Positions 17,819 to 36,925 of a stretch of DNA of 37,686 nt are shown one piece after another. Position 1 is the stretch's first letter; every line of letters begins with the position of its first letter. This DNA comes from a virus (lineage: Duplodnaviria > Caudoviricetes): positions 1-37,686 of IMG/VR virus record IMGVR_UViG_3300028585_000049. One strand, 5' to 3'. The position numbers and the translations under genes are program-made. A model generated the notes under the pieces. It was not told where the DNA came from, searched no databases, and saw only the letters and a program-made list of their open reading frames with translations.

Positions 17819-19081
17819 CTATTCCACCTTGTCTTGCGGCGATGTTTCGCCGCCCGTGAGGGTATCAGCTGCCCGGTTGCTGTTGAGCGGTGCGCGCGGA
17901 TCGTCGGCCCAGTCCGCATCGATGCGCGGCTGGCCGAACCACTGCGTGCCGATCGTGTTGACGCTGAGGATGCCGGCGGTGCGTGCCAGCACGGCATTGC
18001 GCCACTGGGTCGCAGCATCACCGCGCAGCATGCTGTCGAGATTGAACTTCGCGCGGACCTTCTGAAGCCGAAGATCCGGCGGGATCATCCGCACGGTGAT
18101 TGCCTGTTCCATGCGACGGGTGAGCGGTCGAAGCGCCCAGTTCACGAAGGACCGCGTATCCTGCTCGTTGTTGCCGGCGTTGCCGCCATCGTCACCGATC
18201 ATCGACCGCGGAATGCGCCAGTAGCGCCCCATCTCAAGCGTGCGCTGGGCAAAGAGTTCGCGCAGCTGGGCGTCGACGTTGTTGCTGCCGACCGCCGTGT
18301 ATTTGACGCCCTGCTCGAACACCGGGGTTCCGCCGCGCTTCCAAGCCGCGACACCTGTCGCCAGTCTGTCGGCCGATGCATCGGTCAACTTCTGTTCCGT
18401 CGTAACGATGCCGGACGGCCGACGATCGTTGCGGAAGAACGCCCTCGAACCGACCTCCAGCGCCAGCTGGAAGTCGATCGAACCCTTGGCCTGCTTCCAC
18501 GGCACAAGCGGCCGTAGCCCCCCATCCGCCAAGCCGGTGAACCAGAACAGTTCCTGCGGCAGCAGCCGGCGCTGGCCCGTCTCGGACGCATAGTCGACGT
18601 ACATGCTGCGCTCACCCCAGTTGGCCGTGGTGCGCAACGGCGATAGCGGCCAGATCTCCAGCCCGTCGACGCCGACCGTCGGCTCCGCGAACGCCTCGCC
18701 GCGCAGCACGCACGTGAAGGCCATTGCCGCCCAGAATTCGGCGCCGGTCTGCAAGTGGTTCGGCTCGTATGCGAGCACGTTGGCGAGTGGGAAGTCGTCC
18801 CGCGTGCCGTTGTCGTCCTTGAACTCCAGGGCGAGGCTGCCGACCGCCTCCGCAATGATCGACACGCAGAAGAACACGGCCGCGACCCGCGCGGCCGTCT
18901 CGGCGGTGTTAGCCTCCATCGGCATGGCCGCGACGAGTGACGTCCACGTATCGTCGCCGAAGAAGCGGCCGTCCGTCACATTGGACGGGGCAGGGCGCCC
19001 GGTGACCGGCGCTATAGCCATGTGCCCATGGGAGGAATTGACCCCCCCGGCGCGGCTGCGGTAATCGTCTGGACTGGGCAT
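17819..19081 (-). CDS. Portal protein (HK97 family)
   Basis: VFFCVSIIAEAVGSL, EPNHLQTGAEFW, LRGEAFA and LDSMLRGD motifs. Confidence 0.95.
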   Translation of the reverse strand: MPSPDDYRSRAGGVNSSHGHMAIAPVTGRPAPSNVTDGRFFGDDTWTSLVAAMPMEANTAETAARVAAVFFCVSIIAEAVGSLALEFKDDNGTRDDFPLANVLAYEPNHLQTGAEFWAAMAFTCVLRGEAFAEPTVGVDGLEIWPLSPLRTTANWGERSMYVDYASETGQRRLLPQELFWFTGLADGGLRPLVPWKQAKGSIDFQLALEVGSRAFFRNDRRPSGIVTTEQKLTDASADRLATGVAAWKRGGTPVFEQGVKYTAVGSNNVDAQLRELFAQRTLEMGRYWRIPRSMIGDDGGNAGNNEQDTRSFVNWALRPLTRRMEQAITVRMIPPDLRLQKVRAKFNLDSMLRGDAATQWRNAVLARTAGILSVNTIGTQWFGQPRIDADWADDPRAPLNSNRAADTLTGGETSPQDKVE

Positions 19082-20817
19082 CAGAGTATCAACATGCCCC
19101 TTTCCTCATAGACGAAGCCGCCTGCGGCCTCCGGGTTTCTGGTCATCAGCATCACCGCGTTGAACATCGCGGCGAGCGGATCGATTTTCGCACTGGCCGA
19201 AGCCTTCACGATGGCGACCGCGCTCGTGCCGCGCGGCTCCATCTTCGCGTTGCCGACACACCACGACATCATGGCCGAGCCATCGTGCCGCATCGTCCGC
19301 GCTGCGAGTTTTCGTGCCGAACCTTTAACGGCGCTGGACAGCTTGAAGCCCTGCCCGATCGCCGAGAATTGCTCGTCGGTGAAATCCTTGGTCGCCAGTT
19401 CGTCCACGATCGCGGTCACGCCGACCGGATCGAGGCCGATGGCCTCTTTCTCCGGAAAGAGACCGGCGTCGCGGACCTGCACGAGGATCTCCACGACGCC
19501 GCGAATATCCTCGGTCAGTTCTTCCTCGGCATCATCGCGCTCGATGTCGATCGTGGCGTCGTCGGGCATCAGGCACTTGGTCAGGGATCCCTCGCCAACA
19601 AGCTCGTTGAGCTTGGTGGCGATGTCCTGACGGCGCTTCCACACGATCGACCACGCCCAGGCATGGCACCACACCAGCCAACGCTTCGAACCCTTCTCAC
19701 GACCGATCAGGCAAAGCCCGAGCAGATCGTCCAGGCCGCCCCCGTCGACACCGGCCACGATCACCTCGCAGCGGCGTATCAGTTCGGCGACCGACAGCGT
19801 CTTGTCGATCGCGCCATCCCAAAACTCGGCACCGGTCCAGCGATCCCGGCTAAGGCGCGTGCCGATCTCTACGTTGAGATGCTTCGCGAGGAAGATCTGC
19901 AACCCTTCGCCTGCGCCACGCTGCTCCTGCGCGAGTTCGTTCTCGATCCAATCCTCATGCACCGATCGCCCGATGTTCGGGTTGGTGACGTAGAAGTTCG
20001 AGGTTTTGAGGTATTCATCCCGATCCAGCATCGCTGGCGGGTATTCGTAGAGGACGCCCAGACTGGCAGGATCGTTGATCGTGCCGTCGCGGACACCGCG
20101 GAAATGGTCGAGCTCGTCTTTGAAGACGCCCCGTGGCTCTTAGTCGCTGTGCGTCGTCAGGTAGATGACGAAGCCTTCGCGAGCCGACGATAAACCGCCG
20201 GTTGCCTCACGCAGCATTGCCTTGGCGTTGGCGCGTTTGCCGAAGATCCAAAGCTCGTCGATCAGCACGAACGCCGCCTTGGTGCCGCTGACGACATCCT
20301 TGTCAGCGGCGATGATCTTCAGTTCGGCTTCCGTGGTCCGGTGTTTGATGAGCCGCTGGTGGTCAACGACATGCAGCAGCGCGTTCAATTCCGGATCGTG
20401 GCGAACCATGCCGGCAGCGGGGTCGAAGCTGTTGCCAGCGACTTCGATCGTCGGCGCGAGGATCAACAGTTCGGCATTGAACCGCCAGTTGCGGATCAAT
20501 GCCGTGACCATGATCCCCGCGGCGATCGTCGATTTCGAGTTCTTCTTGCTGATCAGCAGCAGAAACTTGCGGATCAGACGCCGTGCGGATTGATGGTCGT
20601 ACGCGCCGAAGATGGCCGACACGAAGTCGAACACCCACTGATCGCACGCCTCGCCGAACGTCGGCTTGCCCGGCAGGTCGACGATATGCAGCGACTTGAA
20701 CACCGCCAGGGCGGCAGCCGCCTCGTCGGGAAACAGCGGGTCGAAAGGTATCAGCGAACGCCGCTGGACGATCCGGTCTTCCCAGTCTCGGCAGGCTGTC
20801 GACCAGACCGGCGTCAA
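19081..20817 (-). pseudogene. Terminase large subunit interrupted by an in-frame TAA at 20142-20140
   Basis: ORFs 20140..20817 and 19081..20031 are in the same frame and read YLTTHSD*EPRGVFKDELDHFRGVRDG across the stop; Walker A ISKKNSKS, Walker B VLIDE, nuclease GVDGGGLDDL and KIDPLAA. Confidence 0.88.
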
Positions 20818-32659: not shown

Positions 32660-33687
32660 TGTTCGTCGCTTCTTTGAATGCGGCGTCAGGTTGCGACGTT
32701 CCCTTCAGGAGTGACCTGAAAATGCCCGGTTTCATAGTCGTCACCGCTGGCCGCAAGCTGGAAGTGCGTGAAACGCCTGGTGCCGTCGGCCGAGTCGTAT
32801 CCAATCTCGCCGACGAAAAACAGGCTTGCGGTTCCAGCAATCAGGTCATCGTCGGCAGCCTTGATGCCCGTAATTGTATAACCTCTAACTTCCTTGGTGA
32901 AGCCAACCGGCAAATCACCAAGCGGAACGTGGACTTCATTCCAGAGATTACCTTTAACCGGACCGCTCCAGTACCCTCCGACAAAGCCACGGGCGCGAAA
33001 GCTCACGTTTTTCGCTGGCGTTGCTCCAAAATTCTGGATCTTCAGGTTCAGTGGCGCAGCATCGCCTACCAACCCAACCGATCGCATGCGGCTGAATTCG
33101 GGAATTATCGAGGTCAGGTAGACGTACGGCCTCAGTTGCTGCTCGAGCGCATCACGCGAGATGGCCGCTTGCTCCAAGGCAGCGTTTGCCGAACGCCGCG
33201 CCTCAAAGAGGCCGTCTTCGGCGATCTGTGCCGTACGCCGCGTTTCTCGAAACGTGAGCAAAACCAACCCAGTCCCAATCGCGGTGATGACGGCTCCGGC
33301 AATACCAAGGAACAAGCTCCAGAGCGCGACATCCGCTGCTTTTTCAGTCGCACGAACAGTGCGCCATTCGGCGCTCAGGTCGCGGTTGCTGCGCTGGTAA
33401 GCATGCTTGCGGGCATCAGCATAGCGGGAGCGTACTTGCTCGTCCGGTGGAGCACTGCGAAGCGAATCGGACTGTTGCTTGCCGGCAGTATGACGTTGGG
33501 GGGACTCGCTTGGTGGACTAGCCCCTGTGAGCAGCAGAACAAGACATACGGTCTGGGTGCCGCCACGGCGCCAGCAGGCCTTCAAATTCATAAAACCGCC
33601 CCCTTCGCCAACGTGAGATCGCCGACGGGGAATGAATTGTCGAATCATTGGACAAACGTGGGCGACGCTCTGGGGCCGACGATATGA
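32656..33687 (+). CDS. Possible antisense bridging ORF (343 aa) with two hydrophobic segments
   Basis: ATGA overlaps with both the upstream and downstream operon genes; fully overlaps the minus-strand moron. Confidence 0.3.
   Translation: MMFVASLNAASGCDVPFRSDLKMPGFIVVTAGRKLEVRETPGAVGRVVSNLADEKQACGSSNQVIVGSLDARNCITSNFLGEANRQITKRNVDFIPEITFNRTAPVPSDKATGAKAHVFRWRCSKILDLQVQWRSIAYQPNRSHAAEFGNYRGQVDVRPQLLLERITRDGRLLQGSVCRTPRLKEAVFGDLCRTPRFSKREQNQPSPNRGDDGSGNTKEQAPERDIRCFFSRTNSAPFGAQVAVAALVSMLAGISIAGAYLLVRWSTAKRIGLLLAGSMTLGGLAWWTSPCEQQNKTYGLGAATAPAGLQIHKTAPFANVRSPTGNELSNHWTNVGDALGPTI
32686..33591 (-). CDS. Moron-like membrane protein (signal-like N-terminus, TM helix, coiled coil, beta-rich domain)
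   Basis: Opposite orientation to its operon; DLSAEWR ... TM ... TFRETRR ... EQQLRPYV; start uncertain. Confidence 0.7.
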   Translation of the reverse strand: MNLKACWRRGGTQTVCLVLLLTGASPPSESPQRHTAGKQQSDSLRSAPPDEQVRSRYADARKHAYQRSNRDLSAEWRTVRATEKAADVALWSLFLGIAGAVITAIGTGLVLLTFRETRRTAQIAEDGLFEARRSANAALEQAAISRDALEQQLRPYVYLTSIIPEFSRMRSVGLVGDAAPLNLKIQNFGATPAKNVSFRARGFVGGYWSGPVKGNLWNEVHVPLGDLPVGFTKEVRGYTITGIKAADDDLIAGTASLFFVGEIGYDSADGTRRFTHFQLAASGDDYETGHFQVTPEGNVAT

Positions 33688-34223
33688 CCGATCGCCCCCG
33701 CTTCATCTACGCCTACGCAGAGATGGCACTGGTCGCCGAGGACGTCCGGCGAAACCGCGCGGAAGGCGATGTCTCGCTGGTCGACGCCGGCAAGCTGTCG
33801 CCTGACCTCGCTGCCGCACGGCTCCGCATCTCAACCGCGCTTGCCGTCGATTGGAAGGCGTACGCCCGCATGGAGCTACCGCCACTCGATTCGACGACCG
33901 ACGTCGAGAAAATCGCGGATCTGAAGGCCGTGCTGACCGGCGCCGAGAAACGCCGGGATCAAGCGCGGATGGCGATGATCCACGAATACGGGCCAGCTAT
34001 CGGAGATCTCTCTTTGAACGAGCTATGGCGGATCCACGACTCGCACGACACACGGTCGCTGCGTGTGCTGCCGTACCTCCATTGGGAAGGCTACGCTGCT
34101 GCGATCGAAGCGATGCTCTGGTGGCAAGAGCGCCCCAGGTACGAGAGCCGACGCTTCATCACGATGATCAATCAGCAGCTGCAAGGCATGGGCTATGCCG
34201 CGCAGGAAAGGGCAGCAGCATGA
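33684..34223 (+). CDS. Hypothetical phage protein
   Basis: ATG at 33684; LVDAGKLSPDLAAARL; ATGA-coupled to the next gene. Confidence 0.75.
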   Translation: MTDRPRFIYAYAEMALVAEDVRRNRAEGDVSLVDAGKLSPDLAAARLRISTALAVDWKAYARMELPPLDSTTDVEKIADLKAVLTGAEKRRDQARMAMIHEYGPAIGDLSLNELWRIHDSHDTRSLRVLPYLHWEGYAAAIEAMLWWQERPRYESRRFITMINQQLQGMGYAAQERAAA

Positions 34224-34402
34224 GCGCCGCAGCGCGTTTCAAGGAAGCCGACGTGACGCGCGCGGTACGCGGCGCGACCAAGGCTGGGATGATGGTCGGT
34301 CGCATTGAGATTGATCCGAACGGAAAGATCGTCATCTTGAGCGAATCGGTCGCCCCTCCTGCCGATCCGAACCCTTGGGATATAGTCATTGGCAAAGCCT
34401 GA
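34220..34402 (+). CDS. Putative excisionase / recombination directionality factor, 60 aa
   Basis: ARFKEADVTRAVRGATKAG ... RIEIDPNGKIVI ... NPWD; overlaps the integrase start (function inferred from position and size). Confidence 0.65.
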   Translation: MSAAARFKEADVTRAVRGATKAGMMVGRIEIDPNGKIVILSESVAPPADPNPWDIVIGKA

Positions 34403-35540
34403 CCGAACACGGCGCCGGTTCCTTCCCGAATACGTCAGCAGCTTCAAGGATCGGCACGGCAAGGAGCGGCTACGCTTCCGCCGCAAGGGTTTCGGGGGCG
34501 GCTATTTCAAGTCGGCCCTCGGCACCGAGGATTTCCGCACCGAGTATCGCGCTTTCATGGATGCCAGCGAGACGGTCGCAGTCGCAGTCGACCGTGCCGT
34601 TCCGGGCACAATCGCTGACCTCGTCGCGCGCTACTTCGCGACCCCAACGCGCCTTGGCCCCACCGTGACCACCCAGAGCAAGGTCCGCAGCATCGTCGGC
34701 CGGTTCAGTGAGGAATACGGCAAGCTGCCAGTTGCCCGCGTTGGGTTCGAGCACATCGACGCGATCGTGATGGCGAAGATGCAGCAGAAGATGGTGCAGA
34801 CCTCGCGCGGCCTGCGCCCGATCGGCGGGCCGGTCGCAGCCGGCAAGCTGCGCAAGGAACTGGTGCGGCTATTCAATTTCGCCGTGAAGCTCCGCATGAT
34901 TCCGACCAACCCAGTTTTGCTGGCGGATCATGTCAAGCTATCGGTCGAGCAGCGATCTGCCGGCTATCATACGTGGACCGAAGACGAGATTGATCAGTAT
35001 CGCGCACGCCACCAGCTTGGCACCAATGCCCGTCTAGCGCTCGAACTCCTGCTATGGACCGGCCAGCGCCGCAGCGACGCGATCCGCATGGGTCGACAGC
35101 ACATCGTCGACGGGCGGATCAAGGTTGTACAGGACAAGACAGGGAAGGTCCTATGGATCGCGGTCGCGCCCCAGCTACTTGAGGCGATCGTCGCGATGCC
35201 CGCCGCCAAGAACCATCTGTGCTTCCTGATCAACGAACAGGGGCGTCCGTTCACGCGAGCGGGTTTCGGCAACTGGTTCCGCGATAAGTGCGACGCGGCC
35301 GGGCTCCCACAATGCACGGCGCACGGACTGCGCAAGGCGATCATGCGGCGCATGGCCGAACTCAACCAGGGCAACCAAACCATGAAGGCAGTGTCCGGCC
35401 ATAGGAAGGATGAGGAAGTCGCTCGCTACACTGAAGCGGCCAACCAGCGCAGCATGGCAGACGACGCAATCGGCATCCTCGCGCGCTGGGAGAAGGAAAG
35501 GTCGCGCGATGAAACTGCGGTTCGTGACATCGTTTCCTGA
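34389..35540 (+). CDS. int: Tyrosine integrase
   Basis: TGQRRSD (R), QDKTG (K), HGLRK (HxxR), SGH, VARYT (Y); N-terminal arm-binding-like domain. Confidence 0.96.
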   Translation: MAKPDRTRRRFLPEYVSSFKDRHGKERLRFRRKGFGGGYFKSALGTEDFRTEYRAFMDASETVAVAVDRAVPGTIADLVARYFATPTRLGPTVTTQSKVRSIVGRFSEEYGKLPVARVGFEHIDAIVMAKMQQKMVQTSRGLRPIGGPVAAGKLRKELVRLFNFAVKLRMIPTNPVLLADHVKLSVEQRSAGYHTWTEDEIDQYRARHQLGTNARLALELLLWTGQRRSDAIRMGRQHIVDGRIKVVQDKTGKVLWIAVAPQLLEAIVAMPAAKNHLCFLINEQGRPFTRAGFGNWFRDKCDAAGLPQCTAHGLRKAIMRRMAELNQGNQTMKAVSGHRKDEEVARYTEAANQRSMADDAIGILARWEKERSRDETAVRDIVS

Positions 35541-35976
35541 TCGGCATGGGATAGTCAGGTATCGGTTTCGGCGAAAGGGCCTCCCGAGCCACTATTTCGT
35601 AGCGTCGCCAGGAACGGCTGCCTTTCGGATAGAGTACGATCGCTGCCTCGCCGGCGATAAGCCGCCAACGCGCTACGAGCTCCCGGTCGAAGATCGGCGC
35701 CGTAGATCGCGGAAGCTGAAAGAAGTGGTGTATTTCATCGGCGCAGAGGCCGGACCGATAAAGATTGGTGTATCATGCGATCCGGCCAAGCGGCTCCGGA
35801 CTCTTCAAACAGGGCATCCGGTACCGTTGATGTTGCTGGCGGTCGTGCCAGGCGGCGTCGGGGTGGAACGTGCTCTGCACCGCAAATTCTCGAACCTGCG
35901 CGTGAGGGGAGAATGGTTCGCTCGATCGCCCGAATTGATCGCAGAAATCGACAACGCGGGGCTGTTGAATGTCTAA
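35509..35976 (+). CDS. Fusion protein: integrase arm-binding-like domain + GIY-YIG (T5orf172/MUG113-type) nuclease domain, 155 aa
   Basis: The N-terminus aligns without gaps to the Int N-terminus; the C-terminus has VYFIG ... IKIG ... KRL ... LQTG ... ERALH ... GEWF; AGGA SD before the ATG at 35509. Confidence 0.85.
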   Translation: MKLRFVTSFPDRHGIVRYRFRRKGLPSHYFVASPGTAAFRIEYDRCLAGDKPPTRYELPVEDRRRRSRKLKEVVYFIGAEAGPIKIGVSCDPAKRLRTLQTGHPVPLMLLAVVPGGVGVERALHRKFSNLRVRGEWFARSPELIAEIDNAGLLNV

Positions 35977-36040
35977 CTAGGCAAGAGGTTAAAGGCTAAC
36001 CCTGCCTAAGTCATTGTTTCTCCAAGGTTTTTTCGGTAGA
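35971..36040. other. Phage-side att arm region
   Basis: CTAA(C/G) motifs, imperfect inverted repeat TAGGCA...TGCCTA, IHF-like TAAGTCATTGTTT at 36007-36019. Confidence 0.5.
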
Positions 36041-36117
36041 TGGCGCGCCCGGAGGGAGTCGAACCCCCGACCGAGGAGGTAGAAGCTCCTTGCTCTATCC
36101 AACTGAGCTACGGGCGC
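36041..36117 (-). tRNA. tRNA-Arg(UCU), prophage integration target
   Basis: Cloverleaf: GCGCCCG acceptor stem, GCTC/GAGC D-stem, AGGAG-CTTCTAC-CTCCT anticodon arm, TTCGACT T-loop, encoded CCA. Confidence 0.95.
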
Positions 36118-36175: not shown

Positions 36176-36925
36176 ATGAATATCGTCGAAAACGATCCCC
36201 CCGCACCCGTCGCGGCGCATGCGGTACAGGGTGGCCGGTTCCGCTATTTCGACTTCGTGATGGCGGCATTCGTCACCATCCTGCTGTTGTCGAACGTCAT
36301 CGGGGCGGGCAAGCGCGCGGTCATCGATCTGCCGCTGGTCGGGGTCTGGCCGTTCGGGTCAGGGATCCTGTTCTTCCCCGTCAGCTACGTGCTCGGCGAC
36401 ATCCTGACCGAGGTGTACGGCTACGCCCATGCACGCCGCTGCATCTGGGCGGGGTTCGGCGCGATGCTGTTCATGGTCGTGATGTCCGCGGTCGTGGTTG
36501 CGTTGCCGCCCGATGCCGGGTGGACCGGGCAGGCCGCCTATGAGTCGGTCTTCGGGCAGGTTCCTCGGATCGTGTTCGCGTCGATCGCCGCCTTCTGGGT
36601 CGGGGAGTTCGCGAACAGCTTCGTGCTCGCGCGGATGAAGATCTGGACGGGAGGCCGCATGCTCTGGACGCGCACGATCGGCAGCACGATCGTCGGCCAG
36701 GCGTTCGACAGCCTGATCTTCTATCCGCTCGCCTTTTACGGCGCGCCCGACTGGCCGGTCGAGGCGATGCTGCTGGTGATGGTCAGCCAGTTCGCGCTGA
36801 AGGTGTCGTGGGAGGTGCTGCTGACCCCGCTGACCTATCTCGCGGTGGGATGGCTCAAGCGCCGCGAGGGGGTCGACGTCTATGACGAAGGGACGGACTT
36901 CTCGCCGTTCCGCACGCGGGTTTGA
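36176..36925 (+). CDS. yhhQ: Queuosine precursor transporter (YhhQ/Vut_1 family)
   Basis: LLSNV, FPVSYVLGDILTEVYGY, RTIGSTIVGQAFDS; multiple TM segments. Confidence 0.92.
   Translation: MNIVENDPPAPVAAHAVQGGRFRYFDFVMAAFVTILLLSNVIGAGKRAVIDLPLVGVWPFGSGILFFPVSYVLGDILTEVYGYAHARRCIWAGFGAMLFMVVMSAVVVALPPDAGWTGQAAYESVFGQVPRIVFASIAAFWVGEFANSFVLARMKIWTGGRMLWTRTIGSTIVGQAFDSLIFYPLAFYGAPDWPVEAMLLVMVSQFALKVSWEVLLTPLTYLAVGWLKRREGVDVYDEGTDFSPFRTRV

Follow-up and report, generated by a model that had tools for sequence, protein, structure and literature searches.

Why would a temperate phage keep, between its integrase gene and its attachment site, a gene whose product joins an integrase-like N-terminal domain to a GIY-YIG nuclease? 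The question is raised by the window, i.e., the whole stretch of 37,686 nucleotides that was analysed. It holds a lambdoid siphoviral prophage, as judged by PHROGs matches (tail, head, terminase, primase, repressor, and integrase), which ends at tRNA-Arg(TCT) and is followed by host genes. The fusion gene is the last phage gene ahead of this tRNA gene. In the feature list below, empty alleles are relatives of this locus that carry no fusion gene.

34220-34402, + strand: 60-aa ORF directly ahead of int, with no Pfam or PHROG match, in a stretch common to the empty alleles L056 and L057
34389-35540, + strand: tyrosine integrase (PF00589, phrog_1), its final 15 residues supplied by the cassette
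35492-35967 or 35494-35969 (each limit applies to a different empty allele), + strand: inserted cassette of 476 nt with a new 15-codon int tail, an RBS-like stretch and the greater part of the nuclease gene
35509-35976, + strand: fusion gene P0001, 155 aa, from the ORF call
35509-35664, + strand: N-terminal Int-family domain (beta-beta-short beta-helix), the putative arm-site reader
35722-35955, + strand: T5orf172/MUG113 GIY-YIG domain (Pfam profiles, alignment, fold matches)
35970-35977, + strand: arm-like repeat 1, TGTCTAAC, containing the nuclease stop codon
35987-36001, + strand: remodelled second arm site, GGTTAAAGG here versus inverted GGTTAGACA in the empty alleles
36039-36074, no strand assigned: att core, or at least a portion of it (the 3' part of tRNA-Arg); all 36 nt agree with the empty allele L057, whose contig ends here
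36041-36117, - strand: tRNA-Arg(TCT), the integration target, followed by host genes, one of the Vut_1 family and one that we take, from its translation, to be purQ-like

The initial annotation described the gene as overlapping the int stop and ending at the att arm, and both statements hold: the fusion gene shares with int the final 32 nt of the latter, and its TAA stop lies within TGTCTAAC (35970-35977), about 65 nt from the 3' end of tRNA-Arg(TCT) (c36041-36117). An RBS-like purine-rich stretch is located 7 nt ahead of the ATG. The copy of TGTCTAAC at 35970-35977 is the sole exact TGKCTAAC within the window, and the remodelled arm site GGTTAAAGG overlaps a direct AGGCTAAC at 35993-36000. 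The arm repeats were absent from the largest families listed by a repeat search of the whole window, and a promoter and terminator scan gave nothing over chance level. The 60-aa ORF, coupled to int, is a candidate recombination directionality factor, judged solely by its position. A tRNA-Gln called by ARAGORN at 36637-36722 was rejected as probably spurious, as it falls inside the Vut_1 coding sequence.

Elsewhere in the window, the terminase large subunit gene (19081-20817, - strand) is divided by a TAA at 20140-20142 into two in-frame pieces, both matching phrog_9; the prophage may be defective, or else this may be an assembly error. A 320-aa ORF at 32686-33648 (- strand), opposed to the direction of its neighbours, with lower GC (53-58%) and no Pfam or PHROG match, is a possible accessory gene.

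Both halves of the protein were recognized. An ungapped similarity to the adjacent integrase, counted by hand in the initial annotation, was recovered by BLASTP with 22 of 39 residues identical (E 9e-12; residues 5-43 of the fusion against Int residues 15-53). The proposed GIY-YIG half was confirmed as well: residues 74-146 match MUG113 (PF13455, E 2.5e-12, 47.6 bits against a cut-off of 22.3) and T5orf172 (PF10544, E 6.7e-7, 30.2 bits against a cut-off of 20), both above the Pfam cut-offs. Structure prediction, suggested at the same time, gave an AlphaFold2 model with a mean pLDDT of 90.9 and two confident domains, joined by a low-confidence linker at about residues 51-70. The best fold match of the C-terminal domain was the GIY-YIG protein HIGLE (Z 5.2, rmsd 3.7, 78 aligned residues), followed by the GIY-YIG protein Slx1 (Z 4.9, rmsd 4.8, 83 aligned). 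Foldseek gave no match at E<=0.001 for either the model of the fusion or that of its head.

The architecture is shared by a family of proteins. Among the 150 best hits of a search of 50%-identity cluster representatives, 64 were full-length fusions (counted from the listed ranges), and a profile search added 17 full-length fusion proteins at the 90% level. An alignment of 65 members was made from 63 of the 64 cluster-representative fusions together with P0001 and P0004. All 65 members matched the MUG113 profile at E<=0.01, and 64 of them matched T5orf172. Residues Y75, K85, G87, R95, E120, and W136 were invariant in all 65 aligned fusions, and so were G14 and F39. Catalytic roles may be assigned to Y75, R95, and E120 by analogy to Odn and I-TevI, rather than by direct alignment. 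Two members, P0055 and P0173, look frameshifted. A tree of GIY-YIG domains (258 rows, 77 columns) lacked the resolution needed for counting origins (28 changes, 3 of them forced).

Another member, P0158, shares with the window fusion 39 of 50 residues in the head and 13 of 20 in the linker, and just 43 of 78 in the nuclease. Such a pattern suggests, at the level of sequence, a swap of the nuclease domain behind a common head.

The genomic context of the fusions was surveyed in three collections with a DNA pattern that drew solely on the fusion protein and contained nothing of the integrase. It gave 26 loci, of which 15 were fusions; the remaining 11 were dropped as non-fusions (8 had no profile match and 3 were unfused T5orf172 genes). 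At all 15 fusion loci the gene was located directly behind a same-strand integrase of the Int family of the seed; the initial annotation had proposed to check whether fusions lie consistently next to int/att. Three loci were then set aside, namely the window's own DNA (L024), L014 (the same as L003), and L020 (the same as L001). Downstream of the fusion gene, the 12 distinct loci left had a tRNA gene in five cases (Phe twice, Cys, Arg, and Leu), an attP-like core with a second repeat pair in six, and the contig end in one. The named hosts were Novosphingobium, Brevundimonas, and a Rhizobiales bin. In five of the attP-like loci (L001, L002, L007, L012, and L021), two direct repeats beyond the core had a near-constant spacing of 51-53 nt.

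The fusion gene is rare. The seed stood alone among 401 family genomes, among 22 Int places, and among 45 head matches in an order sample. In viral contigs, none of the 15 candidates of a single-protein locus search was confirmed, and two relaxed DNA patterns gave no match each. A tblastn search with P0001 gave 69 records in cultured phages, none of them covering 80% of the query, and 71 records in plasmids, with 6 covering 80%, the ones listed among these six being Streptomyces GIY-YIG genes. Unfused T5orf172 genes were seen across attP from an insert-free integrase (L064:2769-3212 and L065:772-1215). In phage Pam5 (L100, ON014757.1:24897-25496), an integrase-like gene with the annotation "hypothetical" has an unfused GIY-YIG gene two genes upstream.

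Where does the head come from? Its identity to the head of its own Int is 42% over 52 aa, and it reaches 58% for another family member, L046. By sequence, it is related to the head of the adjacent integrase and is not a copy of it; no recent duplication of the adjacent int was found at the DNA level. Of the 45 head matches in the order sample, 42 were in frames of 311-428 aa, and 27 of the 30 head loci examined were integrases with this head, the other three being the seed fusion, L079, and L091. The integrases in question (L034-L097) form a widespread alphaproteobacterial family whose N-terminal domain has no Pfam model. In the same family, arm repeats are often encoded inside the C-terminal tail of int (MSN/LAN...RLD), and the repeat sequence is tracked by two residue positions. 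One locus, L079:1477-2145 (- strand), has a lone integrase head directly ahead of tRNA-Glu and an int-like C-terminal end; it looks like an internally deleted integrase.

The label "arm-binding" given to the head is putative. It draws on the position of the domain on Int and on the covariation between residues and motifs described below, and not on comparisons with known domains. No Pfam arm-binding family matched the head by sequence, a head profile run against the sequences of solved structures gave chance matches only, and profile searches gave no match of RepA_N to the head. A protein search with the head by itself returned its own query and nothing else. The fold match to the HPI Int (3jtz; Z 3.4, rmsd 3.2, 49 aligned) was at background level, tied with unrelated chains, and the match to lambda Int (1z1b; Z 2.6, rmsd 2.9, 44 aligned) was at background level too. 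The PF02920 (Tn916 Int) cluster had a feature score of 0.86 to the head.

The covariation between head residues and arm motifs was studied in the empty loci, 44 of which (out of 55) were readable at both, many of these rows being kin. The residue located two positions ahead of a conserved Asp followed base 5 of the repeat: F went with T in 28 of 30 loci, V, I, or N went with C in 6 of 6, and Y went with T in five loci and with G in three. The residues after the conserved Asp followed base 7, with RH accompanied by A in 41 of 41 loci and NR or GG by G in 2 of 2. In tree-independent pairs the traits changed together in 3 of 3 cases (sign test p 0.25) and in 2 of 2 (p 0.5), too few for significance. 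From these patterns we infer that F9 and R12-H13 are the specificity residues of the fusion head.

The fusion heads appear to be matched to the integrases beside them. At the first motif-tracking residue the fusion agreed with its own Int in 11 of 13 loci, compared to 3.4 expected (p 0.0002 for the best of about 50 columns); the two mismatched loci were F/Y swaps, and F and Y each occur with T. The mean identity of fusion heads at the 13 loci was 45.6% to the cognate Int versus 38.8% to the others (permutation p 1e-5). Both results are in line with the covariation with the cognate Int N-domain that the initial annotation had proposed to look for. At the same time, the cognate Int ranked first for the fusion head in just 5 of 13 loci, and the correlation between the matrices of heads and Int heads was weak (Mantel rho 0.19, p 0.09). 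The GIY-YIG domain compared with the Int core gave a rho of 0.23 (p 0.04). When the 13 fusion heads were analysed together with 29 Int heads, an AU test rejected their grouping in one clade (p 0.0009, on 52 columns and with a long-branch warning), and this rejection points to repeated capture or conversion.

A similar correspondence was seen in the peptides encoded by the repeats. Among 78 further fusion proteins, 71 were parsable, and the following counts ignore relatedness. Tail peptides encoded by a CCAAC repeat accompanied 6 of 12 aliphatic heads versus 1 of 59 others, and those encoded by CTAGC accompanied 2 of 4 NR heads versus 2 of 67 others. The CTAAC tail signature, present in 9 of 31 F heads versus 2 of 12 aliphatic heads, was not significantly different (p 0.34).

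The motif itself is short. A single arm motif occurs in 16-51 copies in each of five host-type genomes, so that a head reading 8-9 bp would spare the host only by requiring paired motifs or through a preference for the cut site. The exact inverted arm pair was found in 2 of the 5 genomes, once in each, at the att of an element of the family.

Comparison with empty alleles delimited the insert precisely. Three viral contigs (L056, L057, and L058) encode integrases 99, 97, and 95% identical to that of the window and have no fusion gene. In these alleles int continues through an inverted pair, TGTCTAACC-N9/10-GGTTAGACA, and one of them (L057) reaches the same tRNA-Arg core, identical in 36 of 36 nt. 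In runs X1 and X2, respectively 3 and 4 contigs depart from the window at 35491/35493 and pass directly into (AA)TGTCTAACCGGGCA, the first repeat; one contig per run joins 35493 to 36039. Both runs hold empty and filled contigs side by side (X1 may be the source of the window). The junction of the cassette is located 0-2 nt ahead of the first arm-like repeat. The overlap between int and the fusion gene arises because the insert gives Int a new tail of 15 aa.

In a second Int clade (L007 and L016 versus L066 and L067), the junction, judged by eye, keeps its position with respect to the first arm site. Still, the insertion point varies: the strict motif occurred within 170 nt behind the catalytic Tyr of Int in 6 of 13 filled loci versus 47 of 55 empty loci, and one filled locus (L002) retains the whole inverted pair behind this Tyr. 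A tree built from 68 integrase cores calls for at least 6 gains or losses of the insert, all forced by well-supported branches, with gain and loss indistinguishable. No gradient of co-conversion was seen, as differences from the three empty alleles were even along int up to the junction; filled alleles with flanks were few.

The initial annotation named as a possible refutation a one-off fusion of an int remnant, free of purifying selection. This possibility is ruled out by the 64 full-length representatives and by the selection observed on the gene. Compared with the window, the alleles of runs X2 and X3 have pN/pS values of 0.051 (14 synonymous, 2 nonsynonymous) and 0.059 (12 synonymous, 2 nonsynonymous), and these values near 0.05 indicate purifying selection, with the two alleles amounting to about one comparison, since they share most changes. 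One change in the X2 allele removes the ATG of the fusion gene.

What explains a selected, optional gene at this position? We lean towards the fusion gene being a free-standing homing endonuclease guided by an integrase-derived arm-site domain, an explanation that we regard as probable on balance. The fusion protein would be made off the int transcript via translational coupling. Its head would bind arm repeats of the TG(T/G)CTAAC type, probably as a paired array, because single motifs are so frequent in host-type genomes and the inverted pair was found only at att. The GIY-YIG domain would then nick or cut nearby, in the 3' end of int or in the arms of a phage or prophage that shares the cell and has no insert. 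Repair of the break would use the genome with the insert as template, int providing homology on the left and the att core on the right, and the cassette would be copied in this way. The carrier would be immune because the insert parts the binding site from the cut site; in the window the second arm site is remodelled too. Marker exclusion, i.e., loss of unrepaired rival genomes, could come as a by-product.

Homing appears to be supported by the exact empty alleles with 95-99% identical Int, one of them with the same tRNA-Arg core. The patchy distribution of the insert on the Int tree and its homologous empty alleles are, as far as sequence comparison goes, features of a free-standing homing endonuclease, and broken members (P0055, P0173, and the X2 allele devoid of its ATG) may be expected of homing genes. 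Also in favour are the co-occurrence of empty and filled contigs in X1 and X2, the recurrent junction in a second Int clade, the purifying selection, the invariant Y, R, and E, the matched motif-tracking residue, and the rejection of a single clade of fusion heads. Against homing are the even pattern of differences along int, the low frequency of the gene, and the non-uniform junctions. Also, nuclease clades partly follow Int clades, a pattern that vertical descent with loss would give as well. The recognition code draws on few independent pairs, and the fold match of the head to arm-binding domains is weak. Furthermore, the head would bind the carrier's own arms as well, and no cut-site motif was found. 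Of the three functions offered in the initial annotation (cutting the attP of competitors, homing of the module, and modulation of excision), homing is the best supported, given the empty alleles and the at least six gains or losses, and modulation of excision fits the invariant nuclease residues poorly.

The same observations can be read in other ways. The gene may be a domesticated nuclease of the Odn kind, with the same predicted binding and cleavage, kept for destroying or blocking attP in phages and islands with integrases of the same family that enter by co-infection or superinfection, its cassette spreading by ordinary module exchange. The borrowed-domain identity of 40-58% and the architecture do parallel Odn (42% to RepA_N), and strong purifying selection, the lack of a co-conversion tract, and a motif class common to many integrases with differing tRNA targets would all suit such a role. 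We consider it rather unlikely: the phage that encodes Odn targets the origin of another element, whereas the fusion gene sits within its own target site class, which is required only by homing or self-immunity. In addition, two genomes (G003 and G002) carry a filled element beside other integrases of the family, one of which has CTAAC repeats (L034), and this co-residence indicates that co-resident relatives are not constitutively destroyed. A role in the phage's own recombination, with the head competing with Int for arm sites or the nuclease nicking or resolving att intermediates and so shifting the balance of integration and excision, would agree with the co-orientation and coupling of the gene with int at all loci, with a head tuned to its own arm motif, and with the second arm site that differs between filled and empty alleles. 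It is nevertheless improbable, as near-identical modules exist with no fusion gene, showing that the gene is dispensable; competition alone would require no nuclease, but residues of catalytic type are invariant in 65 of 65 members; and a free-standing head with neither nuclease nor integrase was seen just once (L079) among the 30 loci examined.

The Int-like head could also be a passenger, or a non-specific DNA-binding module, of a generic T5orf172 mobile nuclease accumulating around att, a hot spot of recombination. Near int or attP, T5orf172 genes are indeed also found in unfused form (L064 and L065 across attP, and Pam5), T5orf172 domains combine with many heads, and the similarity of whole heads tracks Int heads only weakly by the Mantel test. 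We find such an origin decidedly improbable in view of the motif-tracking residue matched in 11 of 13 loci, the CCAAC tail signature of aliphatic heads (6 of 12 versus 1 of 59, relatedness ignored), and the fused form being always beside an integrase (15 of 15). That the gene is a neutral, one-off fusion of an int remnant is hardly credible: the head is of int-family origin and there are a few broken copies, but the 64 full-length 50%-identity cluster representatives, the pN/pS of about 0.05, and the absence of a recent DNA-level duplication in the adjacent int speak against it.

Returning to the arm-guided homing endonuclease, a wider claim can be put forward tentatively, as one that falls somewhat short of probable: the fusions would be a selfish nuclease family, assembled repeatedly, that hijacks the arm-binding domain of the host Int, with a two-position code matched to the local att arms, and that homes into, or excludes, rival integration modules. 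If this is true, homing nucleases can take aim from the site-recognition domain of a recombinase, parasitising the int-att module that every integrating phage must keep. The principle of Odn would extend from satellite origins to attachment sites. The reshuffling of integration modules would gain a driving force; att sites would become a class of homing target and a battleground of temperate phages. The head, for its part, would be a DNA-recognition module both compact and readable. The window offers a test set of filled and empty alleles with Int 95-99% identical and a base-exact junction, and the natural F, V, and NR heads set against the CTAAC, CCAAC, and CTAGC motifs predict an arm-recognition code for the alphaproteobacterial Int family.

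The fusion gene is real and selected, probably mobile, and apparently undescribed in print, and the genomic case for it is strong. We found no literature description of an Int-head/T5orf172 fusion, in agreement with the initial impression that the architecture was not a described one, in a search that covered few subscription papers; the supplementary table of T5orf172 heads in a 2023 preprint might list the fusion.

Chimeras of T5orf172 as such are an established kind (PMC8263062). The same paper describes Odn (Gp88) of vibriophage ICP1, in which a RepA_N domain 42% identical to PLE RepA is joined to T5orf172 and which cuts the PLE origin. According to a later preprint (bioRxiv 10.1101/2023.03.23.533998), Odn-like chimeras had further origins in coliphages and the heads of T5orf172 proteins are modular; the preprint describes homing by the putative homing genes of ICP1, T5orf172 included, as lacking experimental verification. 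Free-standing genes that home without an intron are well known, e.g., T4 SegF (PMC6083498). Finally, the attachment-directed inhibitor Adi of ICP1 attacks PLE via the Type II integrase of PLE (PMC12987554).

The arm-binding domains of lambda Int, HPI Int (3jtz), and Tn916 Int (PF02920) are, like the head, N-terminal on a tyrosine integrase and made of a small beta-sheet and a helix; they differ in giving no sequence match to it, with fold scores at background level. The likeness to free-standing homing endonucleases consists in an optional gene of the GIY-YIG superfamily beside a conserved gene, absent in close relatives and patchy on the tree of the host gene. The fusion differs in its order, with the binding head followed by the nuclease, and in a specificity that would come from an 8-9-bp arm motif of a recombinase, with the att core as right homology.

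The Type II integrase of the satellite is a serine recombinase. Like the predicted nuclease, Adi is made by a phage and strikes a rival element by way of the latter's integrase system; the difference is that Adi relies on the satellite's own integrase, whereas the fusion nuclease bears its own head from a tyrosine integrase family. The closest parallel in kind is with Odn: a DNA-binding N-terminal domain borrowed from the site-specific protein of a mobile element, a C-terminal T5orf172 domain, and several independent origins. The head of the fusion is an integrase N-terminus and that of Odn is RepA_N, the predicted target of the fusion is the att arms and that of Odn is an origin, and the fusion gene is located in cis within the module that it would target, in a temperate phage whose relatives have empty alleles at this very position. 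By analogy, then, the fusion protein would work like Odn, but it is no member of the Odn group, having an integrase-derived head and sitting in its own predicted target module.
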